Below, one piece after another: positions 1-27,675 of a stretch of DNA of 64,000 nucleotides. This DNA is from Escherichia phage vB_EcoM_G2248: sequence record MK327932.1. The stretch is one strand, 5' to 3'. Position 1 is the stretch's first letter. The number at the start of each line of letters is the position of its first letter. The notes beneath the pieces are model-generated. The model ran no database searches and was not told the origin of the DNA. It saw only the letters and a program-made list of their open reading frames with translations. The position numbers were made by a program, and so were the translations under genes.

Positions 1-1581
1 ACTACCAAAGAACTGATGGAAAAATGGTCCCCGCTGCTGGAAAACGAAAAACTGCCGGAAATCGCAACTGCGTCTAAGCAGAAACTGGTTGCTAAAATTC
101 TGGAATCTCAGGAAGCGGATTTTGCTGTAGACCCGATCTATAAAGATGAAAAAGTTGTTGAAGCATTTGGCGGCTTTATCACCGAAGCAGAAGTTGCTGG
201 CGACCACGGCTATGATGCATCCAAAATCGCCGCAGGTCAGACTACTGGTGCAATCACCAACGTAGGTCCGGCTGTTATCGGTATGGTTCGCCGTGCTATC
301 CCTAACCTGATCGCATTTGATATTTGTGGCGTTCAGCCGATGAGCACCCCGACTAGCCAGATCTTTGCAATCCGTTCTGTATACGGTGCTGATCCGCTTG
401 CTGTTGGTGCTAAAGAAGCATTCCATCCGATGTACTCTCCGAATGCATTCCATAGCTCTCTGGCTGCTAAAGGTGCAACTGTAGGTTCTCCGCTGGGTAC
501 GGCATTCCAGAAACTGGCTATGCAAAGTGCAATTCAGGCTGGCGATATCGTTCATCACACCTTCGCAGAAACTGGCATTGCATATCTGCAAAACGTTACC
601 GCAGAAGCAGTAACTCCGCAGAAAGCAGGGCAGGAAAGCGAAGATGAAGTAGTAATGAAACTGATGGAAGAATGTAAACTGGTCGAAATCGCTTTCGGTA
701 TGGCAACTTCCATCGCGGAAATTCAGGAAGGCTTTAACGGTTCTCAGAATAACCCGTGGGCTGAAATGTCAATGCGTATTGACAAACAGGTTGTTGAAGC
801 GAAATCTCGCCAACTGAAAGCCCGTTACTCTATCGAAGTTGCACAGGATCTGCGTGCTGTACACGGTATGGACGCTGACGCCGAACTGAATGCTATTCTG
901 GCTAACGAAGTTCTGCTTGAAATCAACCGTGAAATCGTTGATGTAATCAACTTTACCGCTCAGGTTGGTAAAACTGGTATGACTCAGACCGTTGGTTCTA
1001 AAGCTGGTGTATTTGACCTGCAAGACCCGATCGATACTCGCGGTGCTCGTTGGGCTGGTGAATCCTTCAAATCTCTGATCTACCAGATCGACAAAGAAGC
1101 TGCTGAAATCGCTCGTCAGACTGGTCGCGGTGCGGGTAACTTTGTTATCGCTTCCCGTAACGTTGTAAACATTCTGGCGTCTGCTGATCAGGGTATCAGT
1201 CTTGCTATGCAGGGTGCTGCAAAAGGTCTGAATACCGACACCACTAAAGCTGTTTTCGCTGGTGTTCTGGCTGGTAAGTACAAAGTATTCATCGACCAGT
1301 ATGCTCGTCAGGACTACTTCACCGTAGGTTACAAAGGCGACAACGAAATGGATGCTGGTATCTACTATGCTCCGTATGTTGCTCTGACTCCGCTGCGTGC
1401 AACTGACCCGCAGTCTTTCCATCCGGTTCTGGGCTTCAAGACTCGCTATGGCATCGGCATCAACCCGTTTGCTGACAGCAAATCCCAGGCGCCGTCCGCT
1501 CGCATCACCTCCGGTATGTTGAGCAAAGAAAGCGTAGGTAAAAACGCATACTTCCGCCGTGTATGGGTTAAAGGTTGCTAA
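1..1581 (+). CDS. 23: Major capsid protein gp23 (5' end outside window)
   Basis: Translation aligns along its length with T4 gp23 (e.g. RRAIPNLIAFDICGVQPM, GKNAYFRRV near C-terminus); reading frame is open from base 1, so the start lies upstream of the window. Confidence 0.95.
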   Translation, partial: TTKELMEKWSPLLENEKLPEIATASKQKLVAKILESQEADFAVDPIYKDEKVVEAFGGFITEAEVAGDHGYDASKIAAGQTTGAITNVGPAVIGMVRRAIPNLIAFDICGVQPMSTPTSQIFAIRSVYGADPLAVGAKEAFHPMYSPNAFHSSLAAKGATVGSPLGTAFQKLAMQSAIQAGDIVHHTFAETGIAYLQNVTAEAVTPQKAGQESEDEVVMKLMEECKLVEIAFGMATSIAEIQEGFNGSQNNPWAEMSMRIDKQVVEAKSRQLKARYSIEVAQDLRAVHGMDADAELNAILANEVLLEINREIVDVINFTAQVGKTGMTQTVGSKAGVFDLQDPIDTRGARWAGESFKSLIYQIDKEAAEIARQTGRGAGNFVIASRNVVNILASADQGISLAMQGAAKGLNTDTTKAVFAGVLAGKYKVFIDQYARQDYFTVGYKGDNEMDAGIYYAPYVALTPLRATDPQSFHPVLGFKTRYGIGINPFADSKSQAPSARITSGMLSKESVGKNAYFRRVWVKGC

Positions 1582-1590
1582 TTAAACTCC

Positions 1591-1615
1591 GGTCGGGTGC
1601 AATGCCCGACTTTAT
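1591..1615 (+). terminator. Hairpin after gene 23
   Basis: Inverted repeat GTCGGG/CCCGAC followed by a T-rich tract immediately after the gp23 stop. Confidence 0.5.
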
Positions 1616-1652
1616 CATAAACCTTATGACAGTGTAAAGTGTTAATTCCAAA

Positions 1653-1681
1653 GGGAAGACTCGAAAGGGTCTTCCCTTTTT
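1653..1681 (+). terminator. Rho-independent terminator after gene 23
   Basis: GGGAAGAC-loop-GTCTTCCC followed by TTTTT. Confidence 0.65.
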
Positions 1682-1697
1682 GCGTATTATATCCCGT

Positions 1698-1705
1698 TAT
1701 AAATA
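1698..1705 (+). promoter_or_regulatory. T4-type late promoter (TATAAATA)
   Basis: Exact TATAAATA about 40 nt upstream of the ORF starting at 1744. Confidence 0.6.
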
Positions 1706-1743
1706 AGGTTGCAAGCCTATATTCTAAGGGGAGCGAAAATTAG

Positions 1744-2052
1744 ATGCACACACTCATAAAGACCAAAACTCCAGCCGTTTCCGCACCCGTAAACTGTATT
1801 CATAGTTCTCACATGACCGTGCAAATGTCAGTTGAAGGGGTAAGGGAAGGGCAAAAAGTCATTGCGGAAGCCTTGTTAGAAGGTTCTCTAGATGGTAAAG
1901 GTTGGTTCACTATTTCAGAATTGAAAGCTGATGGTAATGAATATGCAACTGATGGTGGAGCGTTTGAAACATTATGGTCGTTTATTAGGGCAAATGTAAA
2001 ATCAGTATCTAATGATTCTACTGTAACGGTGTATCTTGCTAAACGGGGGTAA
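1744..2052 (+). CDS. Hypothetical late protein (102 aa)
   Basis: ORF with GGGGAG Shine-Dalgarno about 12 nt upstream of the ATG; downstream of a late promoter; no recognisable homology. Confidence 0.4.
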   Translation: MHTLIKTKTPAVSAPVNCIHSSHMTVQMSVEGVREGQKVIAEALLEGSLDGKGWFTISELKADGNEYATDGGAFETLWSFIRANVKSVSNDSTVTVYLAKRG

Positions 2053-2056
2053 TTAT

Positions 2057-3769
2057 ATGAAGCTAAATCCACAAGCTATCATTAGTGCTGGTTCCGTGAG
2101 TGGTGGTTGTTCTGGTGGTATTCAGATCGGGACTAACGTACCTAGCGGAATTAAAAATACCCATCGTTTCGAAAATGAAGAAGCGAGGGATACATATTTT
2201 ACCGAACATTTTCCAGAATTAGATAGACTAAAAACAATTATTGTTTGCGGTGCTAAACTTCAATTATGGACTGGTAATACAGCACAATCCCCGTATGATA
2301 ATTCTAAATGGGTCGATATGACCTGGGTGATTCAGGGCGAACAAGGTATTACTGGAGAGAAAGGCGAAAATGGACGTGGAATTGCTAGAATCGCAGCACA
2401 ATTATCTGACGATGATCGAAACTGGACTCTAGAAATTACATATACAGACTCAACGCAAGAATCTTTAGTATTTCCTGTTCCAGATGTATTAGCAAACTTC
2501 GTACAGCGTTTAAACGCAATCGAAGTAAAATGGACAACAACCAATCCAATCAACAATCTCGGGGTCGCTATATCACCCGGACGCTATCCGGTAGGTGATG
2601 CAACTTATGGAAAACCTCCAATGATGGCGAATAAGGGGTCCGCAGATGTATATGTCGTTGATGGTAGCGTTATTCAGGTGGTCCGTTCTGTTGATGGTGG
2701 CGTTTACACTCGTATCCGACACAATGGAGAATGGAGTGAATGGAACTCTCAAAACGATGGTGGAATTGGTGGCGGTGGTTTAACTGGTGATCAGGAAGCT
2801 ATGCTAACAAGTCTAAGCACTCGTTTACCGGAGACGTCACCAGAAATACTGGATTTAAACACTCTGACTAAACAAGGTCGCTTTTGTTATTTTGAAGGGA
2901 CCGCAAACCGTCCGAATGGAGCACAAGCACACGGTTCAGTAGACGTACATTCGTGTAAAAACTATGTGTTACAGATTGCAACCAGTGTAGAAGGGGTAAT
3001 GTATCATCGCTCATACACAAAGAAAACTGATTCATGGTCCGAATGGACACAGATCAGCGATCATACTGGAGGGGCGACAATATATGAGTTCCCTCGTGTG
3101 TCTAGTGTGTTCACGACCGCACAAAGTTTAATCGAGGCAACAACACCGGGTACTGGAGGCGGGGCATTTTATATTCCGTGGAAATATGTCATTCATGATA
3201 ACTATGGGTGTACACCACGGATATCAGAGCCAGTTAGACAGAACGATGCCGATCATTGGTGGGTGTGTCCGAAATATGGAAGTTATGACATGGAATTGAT
3301 TTTTGATGTTGGTTTTATTAAAACACCACAAACAATTCCTCCTATCTTTACAATCACGGTATGGCATCGATTAACCGACGGTCGAGAACAACAAGCAGCA
3401 CGTTATCAGATTGGATTAGATGTATCACAAAAAAACCAAACATCAAAATCGCTAAAATTGAGAATGACTCACATTACATCGGGAGAGATGTTCCGGTGGC
3501 ATGTTTCATTTAATGGTGGTAGTTGGTCGGCAAGCGATAACCCAGATGTTTCCCTTGTACCATTCCGAACATTGCTGATGGTCGATGAAGTGGAACACGA
3601 TTCAGCAAAACGAATTGGTTCGTTAGCATACAACACATGGGCGAATTTTCAAGCTAGAAAAGGTCTGGCGGCGACTGTAAGTGAAGACGAATTAAAAAAA
3701 GCTCGTCTTAATGCCGTTAAATGGAGCGCATCAATCGAAAGTGTTGATGCATCTCAGGACGACCAATAA
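2057..3769 (+). CDS. Hypothetical late protein (~570 aa) with short collagen-like G-X-Y stretch
   Basis: Long ORF; ATG at 2057 preceded by GGGGG RBS; contains GEQGITGEKGENGRG (five consecutive G-X-Y triplets) and Gly-rich tracts; no T4 counterpart at this position. Confidence 0.55.
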   Translation: MKLNPQAIISAGSVSGGCSGGIQIGTNVPSGIKNTHRFENEEARDTYFTEHFPELDRLKTIIVCGAKLQLWTGNTAQSPYDNSKWVDMTWVIQGEQGITGEKGENGRGIARIAAQLSDDDRNWTLEITYTDSTQESLVFPVPDVLANFVQRLNAIEVKWTTTNPINNLGVAISPGRYPVGDATYGKPPMMANKGSADVYVVDGSVIQVVRSVDGGVYTRIRHNGEWSEWNSQNDGGIGGGGLTGDQEAMLTSLSTRLPETSPEILDLNTLTKQGRFCYFEGTANRPNGAQAHGSVDVHSCKNYVLQIATSVEGVMYHRSYTKKTDSWSEWTQISDHTGGATIYEFPRVSSVFTTAQSLIEATTPGTGGGAFYIPWKYVIHDNYGCTPRISEPVRQNDADHWWVCPKYGSYDMELIFDVGFIKTPQTIPPIFTITVWHRLTDGREQQAARYQIGLDVSQKNQTSKSLKLRMTHITSGEMFRWHVSFNGGSWSASDNPDVSLVPFRTLLMVDEVEHDSAKRIGSLAYNTWANFQARKGLAATVSEDELKKARLNAVKWSASIESVDASQDDQ

Positions 3770-3786
3770 TTAGCGGGGGGTGATTG

Positions 3787-4716
3787 ATGACTGACATTAA
3801 GGCAAAAATTAGCCAGTTGCAAACTGATTTTGTTCAAGGCGAGATCACACATTTCACCGGAAACGAATCAAATGCTCTAATGGAAAGTGATGTTGAAAGA
3901 ATTTCAAATTCAATCAACACTCAATTAATTGATCCTGTAATTGATTTTGTTATTGCTTGTGATGAAGTAATAGCAGAAACAGCAAGCGAGGCACATCAAG
4001 CGGCAGAAGTAGCAAAAAATACTGCTGACGTGGCAGACCGAACGGCAGGTCAATCCATGAGTATGGCAACTGATGCAATTGCTAAAGCTACTACCGCTGA
4101 ATCAGAAGCAACACGAGCACACACCCGATTAGATGAACTGAATATTCCAACAATGCCTAATCTTGATAACCAGACATGGAACTGGCTATCAAGATCTTTT
4201 GATAGTGTCAGTATTAGAGTTGGTAATGGTGTAACATTAGCTGACTCTAATACTAAACCACATATCACATGGACACCAATTCGCCAAAACTTTGAAACAG
4301 GTAGCTATTACGTTGAAGGACGTTTTGAAGCTCGTTTTAAAGTAATGGTTCGAGATTGGATTCAGGGCGAAGGTGGTAATATTGTTTATCTGGCAGGAAT
4401 TGATAGTTTAGCGTCATTTAACGGTTGGATTTATCTGGATGGTTTATCATCTACGGATACGATGAAAACAACCAATATTCAGATTAACGCATACACACAA
4501 AAAGACTCGCAAGTAGTATTTGGCGCTAGTGCTGTTGCGTCTATGTCAGATTCAACAAAAGTTAAAATGGCGTTATTCGTAAACGTAGGAACAGATAGAT
4601 TTGATCAATATACAGATCCGGTCTATGTCGACCTTGTTATGACATTCCAGCGTGACGCTAGCGGTAATTTTGGTTTTGGTACGTTGTTCCCAGAATTAAC
4701 CCCATCTTCTTCATAA
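3787..4716 (+). CDS. Hypothetical late protein (~309 aa), N-terminal helical/coiled-coil-like
   Basis: ATG at 3787 preceded by GCGGGGGG RBS; N-terminal Ala/Glu/Thr-rich heptad-like region; no recognisable homology. Confidence 0.5.
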   Translation: MTDIKAKISQLQTDFVQGEITHFTGNESNALMESDVERISNSINTQLIDPVIDFVIACDEVIAETASEAHQAAEVAKNTADVADRTAGQSMSMATDAIAKATTAESEATRAHTRLDELNIPTMPNLDNQTWNWLSRSFDSVSIRVGNGVTLADSNTKPHITWTPIRQNFETGSYYVEGRFEARFKVMVRDWIQGEGGNIVYLAGIDSLASFNGWIYLDGLSSTDTMKTTNIQINAYTQKDSQVVFGASAVASMSDSTKVKMALFVNVGTDRFDQYTDPVYVDLVMTFQRDASGNFGFGTLFPELTPSSS

Positions 4717-21823: not shown

Positions 21824-22755
21824 TGTTTGATTTAAATGATTTTAACGAACAAGCCGCTAACCTTGACTTTCAGCGATCTAACTTATTCAGCGTGGCATTT
21901 GCCACCACTCCAAGTAATAAGACACAAGCGATCCTAGAAAGTATGGGTGGTGCGGTATATGATATTATACCAAATGCATTAAATGACTATTTCGGGATTA
22001 CTCGTGGTGATTATACTGACGCATTAACAAATCTTGCTGTACAGGGTGTTAGGCGTGCTGTTGATTCATCTGGTGTCAAAAAGTATCTTTTAGGTGCAAT
22101 GTCATCCCGCGTAGTTCAATCTCTTCTGGGGCAATTTGATGTTGGTACATATGCGCTTGACTGGTTCAATATGGCATATAAGACAAACGGTCTTCTGGTG
22201 TATGCTGTTAAGGTTCCAGAAAACAGATTGAATTATGAAATGGACCGTAACCACAATGCGCCAAACATTCGAATTACCGGACGTGATTTTGATCCGCTTG
22301 TATTGAGCTTTAGAATGGACTCTAGCGCATCAAACTATAGAGCAATGCAGGATTGGGTTAACTCAGTAGAAGACCCCGTTACAGGGCTTCGTGCGCTTCC
22401 TGTTGACGTTGAAGCAGATATTCAGGTCAACTTACATAACCGAATGGGAGTTCCTCACACGATCATGATGTTTAATGGTTGTGTTCCTGTTGGTGTGAGT
22501 GCACCGGAATTAAACTATGAAAACAACAACGAAATCACAACATTCGATGTTACTTTCGCATATCGTTCTATGCAAACTGGTGCTGTAGGAGAGCAAGCCG
22601 CGCGAGAATGGATTGAGGATAAGGCAATAAACGCAATAACAAACACTTTCGGCAATAATTTACTTGATAGTGGGTTATCTGCTGCTGGTAATGCTTTATC
22701 GCGTCTAAATGGCGTTGGTGGGCGTGTGGTGAATACTGTCACTAACTGGTTCTGA
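21823..22755 (+). CDS. 54: Baseplate tail-tube initiator gp54
   Basis: 310 aa in the T4 gene 54 position. Confidence 0.75.
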   Translation: MFDLNDFNEQAANLDFQRSNLFSVAFATTPSNKTQAILESMGGAVYDIIPNALNDYFGITRGDYTDALTNLAVQGVRRAVDSSGVKKYLLGAMSSRVVQSLLGQFDVGTYALDWFNMAYKTNGLLVYAVKVPENRLNYEMDRNHNAPNIRITGRDFDPLVLSFRMDSSASNYRAMQDWVNSVEDPVTGLRALPVDVEADIQVNLHNRMGVPHTIMMFNGCVPVGVSAPELNYENNNEITTFDVTFAYRSMQTGAVGEQAAREWIEDKAINAITNTFGNNLLDSGLSAAGNALSRLNGVGGRVVNTVTNWF

Positions 22756-22761
22756 TAAGCG

Positions 22762-22790
22762 AAAGGCGGGGATTATCCCCGCCTTTTTAT
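22762..22790. terminator. Bidirectional terminator
   Basis: GGCGGGGA-TTA-TCCCCGCC followed by TTTTT. Confidence 0.65.
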
Positions 22791-23272
22791 TTTGCTAAAT
22801 CATTGCAGTATTTTAGTGCCTTAGTTTGAAATTCTGCGCTGTTAAGTTCTTCATAACGGTCATAATCACCGTTTAATGCTGCCTTTCTTGCTTCTTGCTC
22901 TATCTGCATGTCAGACATGATAATACAGCGATCCCGTGCTTTCAGCTTCTCAAGTTGTATAGACTCTTCTTTCTGTTTGCGCAATTCTTCTTGACGCTTC
23001 TTTTCTTCTCGTGCTTTCTCTTCCCGCGCTTCTTTGATTGCATCCTTGAACATCTGCGTTTGTGGTGCTAAACCAACTTTAACGCGATCCACGTCTCGAC
23101 GTTCCATTTTAGAAATAAAGCATGATTCGATCTGATCATCACTTGCATATGCTGCTTTACATTCACGAAGCAAGAAAACCGGATCTGATTTAGCATTCAT
23201 CATAGCTTCCATGTTGGCACAACCAGTAAGCATGAATGCAGCCGCAAGACCAATCAGTTTAATCATTTTCAT
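22787..23272 (-). CDS. Putative lipoprotein (161 aa)
   Basis: N-terminal signal peptide with lipobox (LAAAFMLTGC); charged coiled-coil-like centre; ATGA overlap with the upstream ART gene. Confidence 0.5.
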   Translation of the reverse strand: MKMIKLIGLAAAFMLTGCANMEAMMNAKSDPVFLLRECKAAYASDDQIESCFISKMERRDVDRVKVGLAPQTQMFKDAIKEAREEKAREEKKRQEELRKQKEESIQLEKLKARDRCIIMSDMQIEQEARKAALNGDYDRYEELNSAEFQTKALKYCNDLAK

Positions 23273-24093
23273 TTAGTCACCTCACCGAAAATTGTAAATT
23301 GTCTACGATTCTCATCGCCGAAAGATTCTACTACGTCGTTTACCTTGACGCAAGTCCCGCGCGGTAAAATTACTTCACATTCGCAAGGATTCCATGCAAT
23401 TGACCCAACAACAAAACCTTTATGATCTTTTACGTCAATTACCCATGATACATTACAAGAATGTTGCATCTTTCCGGTCATTGATTCATATCGATTCTCA
23501 CAATAAAGGCTAGTGCTGTTTGATAGCCATCCTCCAAAGATGATCGGTGTCATGCTGGTCGATACAAAGTTTTTAAAGGTAAACTCCTTATCTTCAATGA
23601 TGCGCTCTATTGTCTGAATGTCAAGATGTTGACCGCGATAAAGAGTACCGTTTAACTTTTCGGTTTTATCCATGACACAATCCATCAAATCAACAATCTC
23701 TGATATCTCATCGGTCATGTCTTCTTCCCCTAAGAGAGCACCATTTACCCATTCGTATTGTTCAGATACATAATCACAGATTGCATTATATTCTGCTGGG
23801 GTTATGTTGTTATGTTTGTAATGTTTGAATACATTATCTCCAAAGTCTTCGGAGTGTACTTCATACATCACATTAATGATTTTCTTGACAAATCCATAAT
23901 CTTGTGTCTCGCGCTCAAGGAAGCGGATAACCTTCACATAATCATCAAAGTTAATCTGATCGCTGATCATCTCAGTGATCATGTAACCATTAATACCCTC
24001 AATGTCATATGTTTCGATGTAATTATCCATACGTTCCATCATTGATTCGCGTGATTCTTCTGAAAGACGAAAATCCTGTAATTTCTTGAACAT
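23269..24093 (-). CDS. Alt-like ADP-ribosyltransferase paralog (274 aa)
   Basis: C-terminal region paralogous to the Alt catalytic region (LYRGQ...FKNFVSTSMTPIIFGGW versus LYRGM...FKNYVSTSLAPNIFGGW). Confidence 0.6.
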   Translation of the reverse strand: MFKKLQDFRLSEESRESMMERMDNYIETYDIEGINGYMITEMISDQINFDDYVKVIRFLERETQDYGFVKKIINVMYEVHSEDFGDNVFKHYKHNNITPAEYNAICDYVSEQYEWVNGALLGEEDMTDEISEIVDLMDCVMDKTEKLNGTLYRGQHLDIQTIERIIEDKEFTFKNFVSTSMTPIIFGGWLSNSTSLYCENRYESMTGKMQHSCNVSWVIDVKDHKGFVVGSIAWNPCECEVILPRGTCVKVNDVVESFGDENRRQFTIFGEVTK

Positions 24094-24126
24094 TTTAAAC
24101 CTCCCATATAACAGAAAACGGGGCTA

Positions 24127-24158
24127 GTATAAAACTAGTCCCCGTTTGAGTCAACCAT
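24127..24158 (-). terminator. Hairpin terminator (minus strand)
   Basis: AACGGGGCTAGT...ACTAGTCCCCGTT inverted repeat with a T-run on the minus strand. Confidence 0.55.
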
Positions 24159-24171
24159 TATTTCTTAAAAA

Positions 24172-26223
24172 TTACATTTTAAATTTATCTGGCATTGCGT
24201 CTACAGATACCAGATCAGCGATAAGCTGACGTAGAGTTGCCTTATCTGCTTTCTTACGTTCGGTTTTAGCTTCGCTAATGAAGCTGGAGAAAGACAGGTC
24301 AGAAGCAGGTTTAACAACACCTTCACGGATGAATGCATCACCGTCCGCGATCATCTCGCCAGATTCTTGTAATGCTGCCAGTTCATTTTTGTTCATAATA
24401 TGTGCCTCAATGTAATAAGTTTCTTGTGAATCCGTCGATGCCGTAGCACGAGTTACCGTATCAAAGGATAACACAACACCGCGAGGAAGTAAAATCTCGC
24501 ATTCTTTGTAAGCAAATGCTTTGTTACCTACTGGCAAGACAGGGATGTTTTCCGCGCCAGCAATGGAGAAAGCAACATTAGCGCCACCTTCACCGCGAGA
24601 GCCAGCCATAGAATCAACACCAGCAACGGCACTAGCCACGTTTGCATTCCAGCCGCCAAAAATGTTAGGTGCAAGGGAAGTGCTCACATAGTTTTTAAAG
24701 TAAAACGCTTTTTGCTTACGTGCAGTTTCCCACATTTGCGACCGGAAGTCCATACCACGATACAGAATAGTACCCGGATCAAGTTTAACGCCATAGTTGG
24801 AGAAGGCATTATCCAGTGCATCGCACATCTTGACCAATTCTTCTGGATCTGAGATGCCTTCAAACTCTTCCAGCTTACGATCAGTTAGGAAGTTGTTCAT
24901 ATTGATGTATGCTGCATCGGCATATTCGCTCAACACAAAACCTTCCGCGCCTGGCAGATCAAGATCAATATCTGCCATCATTTCACCCATGTTACTAGCA
25001 ATTGCTTCAAACATACCGGAAGCAACATTACGCAGGGCATCGGTTTTAATCTGGGTGATATGACTACGCAGCATTTCAGCTTTTACATCTGCTGGCATAG
25101 ACTGGTCTACTCGATCCATTGCCAGGGCGGTGATCTTGTTTTCGAATACTTCCTCGCTCATGATTTCTTTTAAGCGTTTGATTGATGCTGCGATAACTTC
25201 CGCAGACAACGGATCATATTGATCCTGAACTTTTACCAGTTCGCTTACTGCGTATTTTGCATCGGCTTCGCTTTCAAAAATAGTACGCATGAAACCATAG
25301 CGAGTGATAATATCACTTGTCCAGTCATTCAGAGAACGGGCGGTTGAACGTTCTAAGGCTTGACGATCAATCAGAGTATTAAACTGTTTCTTAGGTTCGG
25401 CTTCGGTGATATCTTCTTCCGGTTTAAGATTAATTTTTTCTGGATGATTCACATAGTCGCTGTTATAGGTCGCTTGAGTTTTCAGCATTTCTTCTTTAGT
25501 CAAACGAGATTTAGCCGCTACGCGTTGTTCCGCTTCCGCGTTTCGTTCTTCTTCTGACACCAGACTAGCCGCATACGCCTCATCTTTAGTCAGAGATTCA
25601 CCAGTAGCCTTAGATACCCAGCGATCACCTAAATCACTTTCTACTTTAGTGAACAAGGAATCATCAAGTTTAATCCCTTTAATCTTATCAATCGCCATAC
25701 CGCGACGCTTGACAACAACTAAAGCGATCTTTTTGCTGGTCATTACTTCCTGCTGGAATACTTCAAACTTCGGTGTACGACGCACCAAACGCTCTATAAC
25801 GCGCTTAACCAGTTCGGTCTTACCTTTCATGCGGGATACGTTAAAACGGAACATAACAGCGTCTAATTGCGCTTTACGGGCTGTTTCCATAACCACATCA
25901 AAAGCACTTGCCATAACTGCAATCGGGTTATCGCCTAGACCATTTTTAAGCTGTACAATACGACCGCTTTTGTTCATTTCGCACAGTACAACATGTGCGG
26001 TCTTGTCACCCATACGAATGATTTTAGGTGTTTTGTTGGTGAAGTTACAAAGACGGACAATCACATCTTTATCGCGTGTCTGTACTGCAAAAAGCTGTTT
26101 AGGATTCTGCTTAGGCTTTAAGCACTGTACCGGAGCAATACTGCCAAAGTTTTCTTCCTCTTCCGTCAACAGCCATTTCTCGAAAGATTCAATCATTAGA
26201 TCGTCGATTTCTAAGTTAAACAT
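24172..26223 (-). CDS. alt: Alt ADP-ribosyltransferase (packaged, modifies host RNA polymerase in T4)
   Basis: 683 aa (T4 Alt is 682 aa); position after gene 54; ART-like C-terminal motifs. Confidence 0.8.
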   Translation of the reverse strand: MFNLEIDDLMIESFEKWLLTEEEENFGSIAPVQCLKPKQNPKQLFAVQTRDKDVIVRLCNFTNKTPKIIRMGDKTAHVVLCEMNKSGRIVQLKNGLGDNPIAVMASAFDVVMETARKAQLDAVMFRFNVSRMKGKTELVKRVIERLVRRTPKFEVFQQEVMTSKKIALVVVKRRGMAIDKIKGIKLDDSLFTKVESDLGDRWVSKATGESLTKDEAYAASLVSEEERNAEAEQRVAAKSRLTKEEMLKTQATYNSDYVNHPEKINLKPEEDITEAEPKKQFNTLIDRQALERSTARSLNDWTSDIITRYGFMRTIFESEADAKYAVSELVKVQDQYDPLSAEVIAASIKRLKEIMSEEVFENKITALAMDRVDQSMPADVKAEMLRSHITQIKTDALRNVASGMFEAIASNMGEMMADIDLDLPGAEGFVLSEYADAAYINMNNFLTDRKLEEFEGISDPEELVKMCDALDNAFSNYGVKLDPGTILYRGMDFRSQMWETARKQKAFYFKNYVSTSLAPNIFGGWNANVASAVAGVDSMAGSRGEGGANVAFSIAGAENIPVLPVGNKAFAYKECEILLPRGVVLSFDTVTRATASTDSQETYYIEAHIMNKNELAALQESGEMIADGDAFIREGVVKPASDLSFSSFISEAKTERKKADKATLRQLIADLVSVDAMPDKFKM

Positions 26224-26290
26224 TTTATATCCTCTAGTTGATAACCTATAAACCTATATTTATGAAAACGGGGCTTAACGCCCCCTTTTA

Positions 26291-26503
26291 TTATAATGCA
26301 CCAGCAAGCAATTGCTCTAAGGTGTATCCTGAATAGTCTTTTTCAATCAGGGTATATTTTCCTACTCGTTTAATCCAGCCACGCATTTCAACGTATTCTG
26401 CGTAGTTGATGGTACGAGTTGTTCCATCTTCTAGCAAAGCAGTACCGATTTCGTTAATGCGGTCATAAGTTACGTCGGTAATGATGATTTCGATGTTAGC
26501 CAT
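26291..26503 (-). CDS. Small hypothetical early protein (70 aa)
   Basis: ORF immediately downstream of a PeSL-like early promoter. Confidence 0.45.
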   Translation of the reverse strand: MANIEIIITDVTYDRINEIGTALLEDGTTRTINYAEYVEMRGWIKRVGKYTLIEKDYSGYTLEQLLAGAL

Positions 26504-26822: not shown

Positions 26823-27341
26823 TTAGTTATTTTTTAATTGTTCATCTTGCAATAATGCAATCACATGCTGGCGATGTTCTTCCGATTGAGGCACACCGAA
26901 AAAGTTTGTTTTGTAGAAATACTCTAATCGGTCTTCTCGTGTGCTCTCTTCCATCATGATCGCGGGTAGTCCGAGATTTCGGAAACGTCGCTTTTCTGCT
27001 GGCGTAAAATCACTGTAATACAACATAGAATCATCATTACCAGCAATGCTAAACTCATCATTCATGAAGGAGAATATTGCGTTTAAACGCTGTTTACCGT
27101 CCACGATTTCGATCTCATAGCGAGAGCCATCATCAATCTTAGCCATTGCGATAGCACCAACCGGAAAATCATTAATCAGGTTTTCGATAAACATACGTTT
27201 GTTTTCGGTGTCCCATACCAAAGGACGCTGATAATCTGGGTTCATGTTGATATATCCATCTTCTAACCACGCCTCATAAACAGAGATGACAAAGTTTTTA
27301 GTATTGGTATAGTAACGGCGTTTAGGCGTTAAACGGTTCAT
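26823..27341 (-). CDS. DUF262 / ParB-like (GmrSD N-terminal-type) domain protein
   Basis: Motifs DYQRPLVW and VDGKQRLNAI match the ParB/Srx-fold DUF262 signature ((Y/F)QR...W, DG.QR); ATG at 27341 with AGGAGA RBS, TAA-ATG coupling to the upstream gene. Confidence 0.55.
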   Translation of the reverse strand: MNRLTPKRRYYTNTKNFVISVYEAWLEDGYINMNPDYQRPLVWDTENKRMFIENLINDFPVGAIAMAKIDDGSRYEIEIVDGKQRLNAIFSFMNDEFSIAGNDDSMLYYSDFTPAEKRRFRNLGLPAIMMEESTREDRLEYFYKTNFFGVPQSEEHRQHVIALLQDEQLKNN

Positions 27342-27342
27342 G

Positions 27343-27675
27343 TTATAGTCTCCTGAATGGATCATCACGTAAATCAATATCTTTTAAGAACTCATCCCAT
27401 GAATGGCGGATATTGTTCTTAATTCTCCAGATAAGCGCAGGGATTGAACGCTCTCCCATCTGGAAGTATGGATCATATGATCCGTATGCCCAATATGCTA
27501 CTACAATTCCACAATCAGCGCAATAGTATTCTATTTCACTTGCTGGCGACCAAAGTCCATCAATATGATCGGTGATCTTGCTTTCGATGTTATGGCTATG
27601 ACAATCAGGGCAACGGATGCAATGACCTTGTTTATCGTAATTTGACGTTAGCGAATACTTAAACAATCTCATCAT
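27343..27675 (-). CDS. Zinc-finger protein (110 aa)
   Basis: CIRCPDCHSH ... CADCG: two CxxC pairs. Confidence 0.45.
   Translation of the reverse strand: MMRLFKYSLTSNYDKQGHCIRCPDCHSHNIESKITDHIDGLWSPASEIEYYCADCGIVVAYWAYGSYDPYFQMGERSIPALIWRIKNNIRHSWDEFLKDIDLRDDPFRRL

Follow-up and report, generated by a model that had tools for sequence, protein, structure and literature searches.

A short Alt-derived ADP-ribosyltransferase gene and a predicted lipoprotein gene form a putative early two-gene unit between alt and gene 54 of a Krischvirus-type phage

Two minus-strand genes lie between alt and gene 54 in the 64,000-nucleotide (nt) stretch of Escherichia phage vB_EcoM_G2248 analysed here (MK327932.1; hereafter, the window). 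With moderate confidence, we read them as a compact early operon composed of a promoter, a gene for a short ADP-ribosyltransferase (ART), a lipoprotein gene and a terminator, which would supply a cytoplasmic Mod-like ART and, independently of it, an envelope lipoprotein. The first gene, an open reading frame (ORF) of 274 amino acids (aa) corresponding to RB49ORF183c/RB49p183 of phage RB49, is referred to here as ART2. The second encodes a protein of 161 aa, and the two genes share an ATGA at positions 23269–23272 of the minus strand, in which ART2 stops and the lipoprotein gene starts. This layout, a 274-aa ORF directly after alt that overlaps a 161-aa ORF by ATGA, had been described in an earlier note made from the sequence alone and was found here in every detail, coordinates included (Table 1). 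The 1.5 kb around the locus shares 99.2 % identity with Krischvirus RB49 (OZ035808) and 98.7–99.1 % with Phi1, JSE, GEC-3S, Sf20 and ~50 further Krischvirus genomes; we regard the phage as an RB49-type (Krischvirus) T4-like coliphage on the strength of this identity.

The feature is real, and the ART paralog itself is largely known, having been present in the literature and in annotation since 2003–2006. The RB49 RefSeq record describes RB49p183 as 'similar to C-terminal part of T4 Alt protein', and Nolan et al. 2006 (PMC1524935) listed RB49ORF183c, 44RRORF188c and T4 alt.-1/alt.-2 as paralogous duplications of alt. PHROGs holds full-length families for both proteins, and some records already carry the label 'putative lipoprotein'. 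Some incremental points were absent from the papers and records that we examined: a promoter nested in a terminator, a conserved early two-gene unit, the signature of the lipoprotein family and the exchange of its alleles as a cassette.

A short Alt-derived ADP-ribosyltransferase

ART2 was matched by PF03496 over residues 82–266 (59.3 bits against a cut-off of 23.4, E value 4e-16) and covered over its full length by phrog_15144 ('ADP-ribosyltransferase'). BLASTP aligned it with the Alt of the window (37 % identity over 109 aa, E value 1e-16), and profile–profile comparison using hhalign equated ART2 residues 65–273 with Alt residues 395–610 (probability 99.9 %, E value 1.7e-34). These analyses agree with the earlier note that the protein is a second ART paralogous to Alt. 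The note had also described the homology as C-terminal, with a different N-terminal half. The C-terminal placement stands; however, the homology spans residues 65–273, roughly three quarters of the protein being Alt-derived, and it is only for the first ~64 residues that no counterpart in Alt was detected. To judge from the match between predicted and known folds described below, the supposedly different half is largely the helical lobe typical of C3-like ARTs.

Pfam recognised PF03496 alone in ART2, and PF26846 together with PF03496 in Alt. ART2 is without the N-terminal ~390 residues of Alt (Tevenvirinae_ADPRT domain, PF26846) and without the C-terminal tail that ends in KFKM. Its architecture is thus not that of Alt proper, only Alt 395–610 being represented.

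The putative catalytic residues are intact. We aligned nine sequences (ART2, five metagenomic ART2 homologues of 83–42 % identity, two short Alt forms and Alt), and R153 (in LYRG), S178-T179-S180 and E238/E240 (in ECEVILPRG) were invariant in all nine and in the same order; they were unchanged even in homologues of only 23–46 % identity. At the ExE motif, the plus strand reads ttcacattc, i.e. GAA TGT GAA on the minus strand. The earlier note had made its ART assignment hinge on such residues, and they are retained. An AlphaFold2 (AF2) model of ART2 (predicted local distance difference test score, pLDDT, 81.5; predicted template modelling score 0.80) gave Vis, C3bot2 and Certhrax as its best Foldseek matches in the PDB (E values 8e-11 to 4e-10), and the matches, which include CDTa/iota Ia and Tre1, extend over ~210–225 columns (E values 1e-10 to 1e-8), for a predicted C3/Vis-like fold (helical lobe plus split beta-sandwich). 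On this evidence, ART2 is an intact R-S-E ART of the T4Alt/VIP2 family, the family in which Iyer et al. 2022 place such enzymes (PMC9503650), and catalytic activity is predicted.

A separate observation concerns a segment that follows the STS motif, GGW-x-NSTSLYCENRY (ART2 residues 185–210, ~23464–23541). It is strongly conserved in ART2 homologues, missing from Alt and modelled at a pLDDT below 50, and its position is that of the phosphate-nicotinamide loop of C3-like ARTs. This segment could set the substrate or NAD handling of ART2.

All 58 Krischvirus records carry ART2 at 97 % identity or more, and no closer relatives were found elsewhere among sequenced phages. Between the window and the metagenomic locus L006, it has accumulated seven non-synonymous and 28 synonymous changes, a ratio of non-synonymous to synonymous rates (dN/dS) of 0.052, compared with 0.025 for alt, 0.107 for the lipoprotein gene and 0.061 for gene 54. 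These low values indicate purifying selection on both genes of the pair and, together with the conservation across the genus, suggest that ART2 is functional and not decaying. ART2 would be a truncated derivative of a tandem alt duplicate.

Could the duplicate be inactive, like the split alt.-1/alt.-2? Full-length or split tandem copies of alt do occur at the same locus in Tequatrovirus-type genomes, and the class into which Nolan et al. 2006 put RB49ORF183c (PMC1524935) includes T4 alt.-1/alt.-2. Nevertheless, the selection and conservation just described, catalytic residues that persist in distant homologues, a confident and complete predicted fold, and a conserved promoter and Shine-Dalgarno sequence of its own all argue that ART2 is very improbable as a remnant. 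The Tequatrovirus-type second copies (T4 alt.-1/alt.-2; 'alt.-2' of ime09) resemble ART2 in occupying the slot between alt and gene 54 and in stemming from a tandem alt duplication. They differ in being full-length (685 aa) or split and in being followed by alt.-3 (DUF5498), whereas ART2 is short, conserved, preceded by its own promoter and followed by a lipoprotein gene. We also looked at the slot in two such loci, L002 (ime09, 1–4155) and L013 (586–5099), where it holds a second Alt of 685 aa or split ORFs of 273 aa (N-terminal) and 415 aa (C-terminal). Across T4-like genera, the slot appears to be a recurrent site of ART duplication and decay. Two short ARTs (P0048 and P0049) were considered as relatives of ART2 and rejected, as they proved to be Tequatrovirus-type second copies reduced to a C-terminal fragment or otherwise truncated, and neither adjoins a lipoprotein gene.

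A putative promoter nested in the alt terminator

Between the stop codon of alt and the start codon of ART2, the minus strand carries GGTTGACT-N17-TATACT, a sigma70-type promoter that the GEC-3S record annotates independently. Its −10 element falls within the loop and 3′ arm of the predicted alt terminator hairpin, so the promoter is nested in the terminator. A transcript started at the ART2 promoter would not contain the 5′ arm of the hairpin and would therefore escape termination, while transcripts arriving from alt would terminate. Both hexamers and the hairpin are kept in L004 (4937–5003), L007 (1836–1901) and L018 (1779–1844), where ART2 is 40–46 % identical; the terminator stem shows one compensatory change, T-A to C-G, in this comparison.

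On its minus strand, which carries the early-gene cluster, the window has 29 copies of the motif TTGAC[AT]-N16–18-TAnnnT (mostly at 24–55 kb), versus one on the plus strand, and this bias indicates that the motif truly marks early promoters in this phage. The GTTGAC preference that Nolan et al. 2006 (PMC1524935) reported for the −35 position of RB49 early promoters is in keeping with it. Two internal sigma70-like matches in ART2 (23813 and 23624) were dismissed, since such matches are at chance level in the region (11 found, 10.1 expected).

The consensus of T4 late promoters is TATAAATA. Within positions 22700–26400 of the minus strand, ATAAATA occurs once, in the candidate late-promoter motif CATAAATA upstream of alt, and none lies upstream of ART2. 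At its other end, the unit is closed by a putative bidirectional terminator common to the lipoprotein gene and gene 54; the GEC-3S record likewise annotates a terminator after the lipoprotein gene, on both strands. An Rfam match to the small RNA sraA (22753–22821, minus strand; E value 0.083, 31 bits against a gathering threshold of 56) overlies this terminator and was dismissed as almost certainly a hairpin artefact.

Taken together, these signals point to late expression of alt, which is consistent with packaging of its product, and we infer that ART2 is expressed early, as one unit with the lipoprotein gene. ART2 therefore probably differs from Alt in timing and location, as it has neither the N-terminal domain nor the tail of Alt and has an early sigma70-type promoter instead of a late motif. 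The earlier note had allowed for a difference in substrate or localisation; the part on localisation is probably right in view of the missing domains and the early-type promoter.

The alternative is that ART2 is packaged in the head and injected like Alt, with its N-terminus, MFKKLQDFRLSE, acting as a capsid-targeting sequence that the prohead protease would cleave after L-x-E. ART2 does have L-S-E at residues 10–12, and its N-terminus can be likened to MKTYQEFIAE, which we take to be the targeting sequence of T4 internal proteins; late alt transcripts might also read through into ART2. The gene adjoins alt and morphogenesis genes, a context that Iyer et al. tie to packaged ARTs (PMC9503650). 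However, ART2 is the only ORF in the window with an MFKKLQDF-like N-terminus, and this N-terminus is not kept in its homologues (MNYNYCIDEE, MFNANIKEV, MLNVSIKSE, MINIELEGK). As PF26846 and the conserved C-terminal tail are absent, ATAAATA is lacking, the promoter is of the early type and a terminator separates alt from ART2, we regard packaging as unlikely and retain early, cytoplasmic expression as the preferred reading.

The lipoprotein and its exchangeable mature domain

The N-terminus of the 161-aa protein, MKMIKLIGLAAAFMLTGC, conforms to the PROSITE PS51257 lipobox rule ([LVI][ASTVI][GAS]C with the Cys at position 15–35), having a basic n-region (Lys2/Lys5), an uncharged h-region and LTGC with Cys18. 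Only three of the 130 ORFs in the window do so; Alt and ART2 are not among them, ART2 having neither signal peptide nor lipobox by this rule. The rule also holds for eight of the nine homologues tested, the exception being 011D4 (LNGC). Under the Lol-sorting rule, the residue after the lipobox Cys (+2) decides the destination membrane, Ala leading to the outer membrane; the Ala at +2 predicts that the protein is sorted there. A 98 %-identical ortholog in the W115 record is labelled 'putative lipoprotein', and the W115 genome paper names LipoP v1 among its annotation tools. The lipoprotein signal reported in the earlier note is thus borne out.

An AF2 model of the protein is all-helical (pLDDT 87), with a helical hairpin (residues 31–65), a 62-residue helix (72–133; pLDDT above 90) and C-terminal helices that fold back. 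The earlier note had seen a coiled-coil-like centre. A long central helix is indeed predicted; however, its core (residues 78–113) is 64 % Glu/Lys/Arg with weak heptad hydrophobicity and seems closer to an ER/K single helix or spacer than to a classical coiled coil. Length variants of this region were also observed: five homologues (P0006, P0007, P0027, P0033 and P0034) carry in-frame differences of −5, −7, −15 and +11 residues, all within the ER/K-rich helix, and the +11 variant is a tandem duplication of EESRKENKHQE. It is as if the length of the helix were free to vary or tunable.

Ten positions are invariant across 13 diverse family members (M1, G17, C18, C38, C51, D60, G67, C116, G135 and C156). 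The invariant cysteines comprise that of the lipobox and two pairs (C38, C51, C116 and C156), as expected of a disulfide-bonded periplasmic protein. Beyond this family, no relatives emerged: sequence searches against Pfam, NCBIfam, PADLOC and the PDB gave no significant match, and Foldseek comparison of the model with the PDB and BFVD returned nothing outside the family itself. A hidden Markov model (HMM) of the lipoprotein, searched against 1.84 billion cluster representatives, recovered only ten members, all of them lipoproteins of 155–174 aa bar one fragment of 103 aa; those whose locus was looked up were all at the alt/gene 54 locus. T4 alt.-3 was tried as a homologue and rejected, having no lipobox and no similarity.

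A lysis role would be another way to read an outer-membrane-type phage lipoprotein with a long helix, i.e. as an o-spanin or unimolecular spanin. The protein has no C-terminal transmembrane segment, however, and no i-spanin partner is adjacent. Its gene is in an early unit distant from the holin gene t, and the protein itself, with 161 aa and two conserved Cys pairs, differs from o-spanins, which are small and proline-rich. We consider this the least credible of the explanations examined here.

The order alt, ART2, lipoprotein gene and then gene 54 on the opposite strand was found in every relative with usable flanks (L004, L006, L017 and L018; L016 in part), down to ~41 % identity in ART2 and ~23 % in the lipoprotein. 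The junction between the two genes is always tight, being ATGA, TAATG, an 8-nt overlap or a 2-nt gap. In the window, the lipoprotein gene has its own Shine-Dalgarno sequence (GAGG, 7 nt upstream) within the 3′ end of ART2. Overlaps of 4 nt are ordinary in this genome: within the first 45 kb of the RB49 record, at least nine pairs of neighbouring genes overlap in this way (record coordinates).

The lipoprotein alleles of the Krischvirus records fall into at least two classes, with 50 records at 94 % identity or more and eight at 27–30 %. Phage 011D4, which belongs to the species Krischvirus RB49, is the clearest case. Its Alt, ART2 and gp54 are 99.7–100 % identical to those of the window (ART2 100 %) and its gp48 98.6 %, yet its lipoprotein is only 33 % identical. 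Its DNA is near-identical through ART2 and the signal-peptide codons (~100 %), drops to near-random similarity across the mature domain, and matches again at the last codons and in the terminator, such that the recombination boundaries are sharp and coincide with the signal-peptide/mature junction and the terminator. Between the window and L006, synonymous divergence (dS) is ~0.2 for alt and ART2, ~1.0 for the lipoprotein gene and 0.76 for gene 54. The mature domain of the lipoprotein therefore appears to be exchanged as a cassette by recombination, independently of ART2. We rejected positive selection as the source of this diversity, as a dN/dS of 0.10 denotes purifying selection; the divergence is old and has been spread by recombination.

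These data bear on the pairing of the ART with an envelope-targeted partner that the earlier note had proposed. In such a two-component module, the action of ART2 at the envelope might be guided, regulated or complemented by the lipoprotein, or the two might serve one pathway. The genes do share a narrow distribution, a promoter and a terminator, and they are always adjacent with tight junctions. Identical ART2 nonetheless coexists with a 33 %-identical lipoprotein, the breakpoints exactly flanking the mature domain, which disfavours a specific partnership; the dS values of the two genes are discordant as well. ART2 has no export signal, and hence the two products are expected in different compartments. 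Overlaps of 4 nt are routine, and co-occurrence is limited to one syntenic locus in one phage lineage and can be explained by descent. For these reasons, the pairing did not hold up and a functional module seems to us quite unlikely, leaving an ART and a lipoprotein that are co-transcribed but act separately as the reading we prefer. A toxin–immunity pair of the Tre1–Tri1 type was rejected on similar grounds, the neighbour of ART2 being an exported lipoprotein that varies independently of it (100 % versus 33 % identity in 011D4).

Proposed functions and relation to known systems

Among known systems, ART2 shares the helical lobe, the catalytic core and the R/STS/ExE residues with T4 Alt (T4Alt/VIP2 family, R-S-E clade), which is packaged in the head and injected. 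It differs from it in size (274 versus 683 aa), in lacking the N-terminal domain and tail, in its early-type rather than late-type promoter and in the NSTSLYCENRY segment. With the small, early-expressed T4 ModA and ModB, it has in common that it is a stand-alone small ART with an early promoter and an ExE motif; however, it is encoded at another genomic locus and descends from Alt, not from Mod. 'Mod-like' is accordingly used for ART2 as an analogy only. C3-like toxins, Vis, Certhrax, iota/CDTa and Tre1 match the fold of ART2, which also has PF03496, but at a sequence identity of 12–20 %. Unlike these bacterial R-S-E toxins, ART2 would be a phage enzyme of the cytoplasm; it has no domain for secretion or translocation and lacks a cognate immunity protein.

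The single Mod homologue of RB49, RB49p014 (167 aa; NC_005066, 8917–9420), is 33 % identical to ModB (E value 8e-11) and 23 % identical to ModA (E value 2e-6). A tblastn search of a complete Krischvirus genome (OZ035808) detected no further Mod, no ModA homologue and no T4 Imm. A lone match to Sp (Spackle) in that genome (E value 0.049) was spurious and, by coordinate offset, appears to lie within gene 41. Counting ART2, RB49 has three ARTs, as does T4, where ModA and ModB are the Mods.

In the model that we favour, alt would have been duplicated in tandem, and the copy would have kept the helical lobe and the catalytic core while losing the N-terminal ~390 residues and the tail and gaining a sigma70-type early promoter nested in the alt terminator. 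ART2 would then be produced in the cytoplasm within the first minutes after infection, where host proteins would be the substrates of its arginine-specific (ExE) mono-ADP-ribosyltransferase activity. It would be an analogue of Mod in a phage with a single Mod. The lipoprotein would be co-translated, exported and lipidated at Cys18, probably reaching the outer membrane, with periplasmic disulfides formed by its two Cys pairs. It would act independently of ART2, and its mature domain may circulate as exchangeable alleles.

As for the role of the lipoprotein, superinfection exclusion or envelope modification/remodelling may tentatively be put forward as the most plausible, since the protein appears to be early and envelope-targeted, its alleles are exchanged as a cassette, and Imm and Sp were undetected. 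In being small, envelope-targeted, apparently early and encoded by a lytic coliphage, it is like the exclusion proteins Llp of T5, Cor of phi80/N15 and Sp/Imm of T4. A more ambitious version, which we think doubtful, is that the two genes make up a two-compartment takeover/exclusion module specific to Krischvirus-type phages, in which ART2 would replace the second Mod and the lipoprotein would represent a new family of disulfide-stabilised outer-membrane exclusion proteins replacing Imm/Sp, its alleles defining exclusion groups among phages that circulate together.

Several points weigh against the early-operon reading and the roles attached to it. Our literature search turned up neither a Krischvirus transcriptome or virion proteome nor a functional study of either gene. 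ART2 has no detectable similarity to ModA (BLASTP E value 0.41) or ModB (E value 1.2). Neither in sequence nor in fold does the lipoprotein resemble Cor, Llp, Sp or, beyond its own family, any PDB or BFVD entry, its sole match to Cor (phrog_1119, E value 0.0078) being limited to residues 1–45, i.e. the signal peptide. Wherever the context of a lineage could be used, both genes were found together at this one locus, closely abutting or overlapping; this strict co-occurrence is compatible with shared descent at one locus and is by itself no proof of a functional link. Finally, the lipoprotein allele does not track the type of the gp37 receptor-binding tip: 011D4 (allele B) and ELT3 (allele A) both have a tip at 82.7 %, and JK32 (B) and GEC-3S (A) both have one at ~66 %, which leaves receptor masking unsupported. 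The tip itself (RB49, L012 6258–7154) is 54–100 % identical over the 58 Krischvirus records, which are otherwise ~98 % identical.

The wider gene order is T4-like, with the plus-strand baseplate/tail genes 28, 29, 48 and 54 converging on minus-strand alt and the ORFs downstream of it; alt is annotated under that name in RB49, GEC-3S and other records. Outside the locus, a 184-aa ORF (26823–27377, minus strand) encodes a DUF262/GmrSD N-terminal-type domain (ParB-like, 'DGKQR'), and its ortholog in L006 matches PF03235 (GmrSD_N). The phage, whose cytosine is unmodified, would here carry part of a type IV restriction-like domain.

Table 1. Features of the alt–gene 54 region, in positions of the window
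Feature	Position	Strand	Basis
Bidirectional intrinsic terminator common to the lipoprotein gene (−) and gene 54 (+), predicted	22761..22787	both	12-bp stem, T-runs on both sides
Gene for the 161-aa predicted lipoprotein (= RB49p182)	22787..23272	−	phrog_16112 over full length; no Pfam match
Predicted signal peptide and lipobox, MKMIKLIGLAAAFMLTGC; Cys18 predicted lipidation site	23219..23272	−	PS51257-type rule
ART2, 274-aa short Alt-derived R-S-E ADP-ribosyltransferase	23269..24093	−	PF03496, phrog_15144, hhalign, AF2/Foldseek
Codons of Glu238-Cys-Glu240 (ExE, ARTT loop, arginine-specific type)	23374..23382	−	E238 and E240 invariant
Codons of Ser178-Thr179-Ser180 (STS)	23554..23562	−	invariant in alignment
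Codon of putative catalytic Arg153 (LYRG)	23635..23637	−	invariant in alignment
Shine-Dalgarno sequence of ART2, GGGAGG	24100..24105	−	sequence reading; 6 nt before the ATG at 24093
Intrinsic terminator of alt, predicted; hairpin GGGG(A)CUAG-UUUUAUA-CUAGCCCC, then GUUUUCU	24114..24143	−	RNA fold −20.9 kcal/mol, z=−2.3
Putative early sigma70-type promoter of ART2 and the lipoprotein gene, TTGACT-17 nt-TATACT	24126..24154	−	promoter scan 10/12
alt, full-length Alt-like ADP-ribosyltransferase, 683 aa	24172..26223	−	phrog_802 over full length, E value 6e-180; PF03496
Late-promoter-like motif CATAAATA, ~35 nt before the alt start codon	26257..26264	−	candidate only

Nothing in these findings is at odds with standard T4-family biology. 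If ART2 is active, RB49-type phages would deploy three ARTs in a set unlike that of T4, namely Alt, an Alt-derived early ART and a single Mod, and a comparison of their targets would reveal which host modifications are indispensable to T4-like takeover. The lipoprotein belongs to a small orphan family, recognisable by its lipobox, its two invariant Cys pairs and an ER/K helix of variable length, and its alleles are exchanged in cassette-like fashion. It is a reasonable candidate for an envelope-level factor in phage–phage or phage–host conflict, which would be relevant to the design of Krischvirus cocktails.

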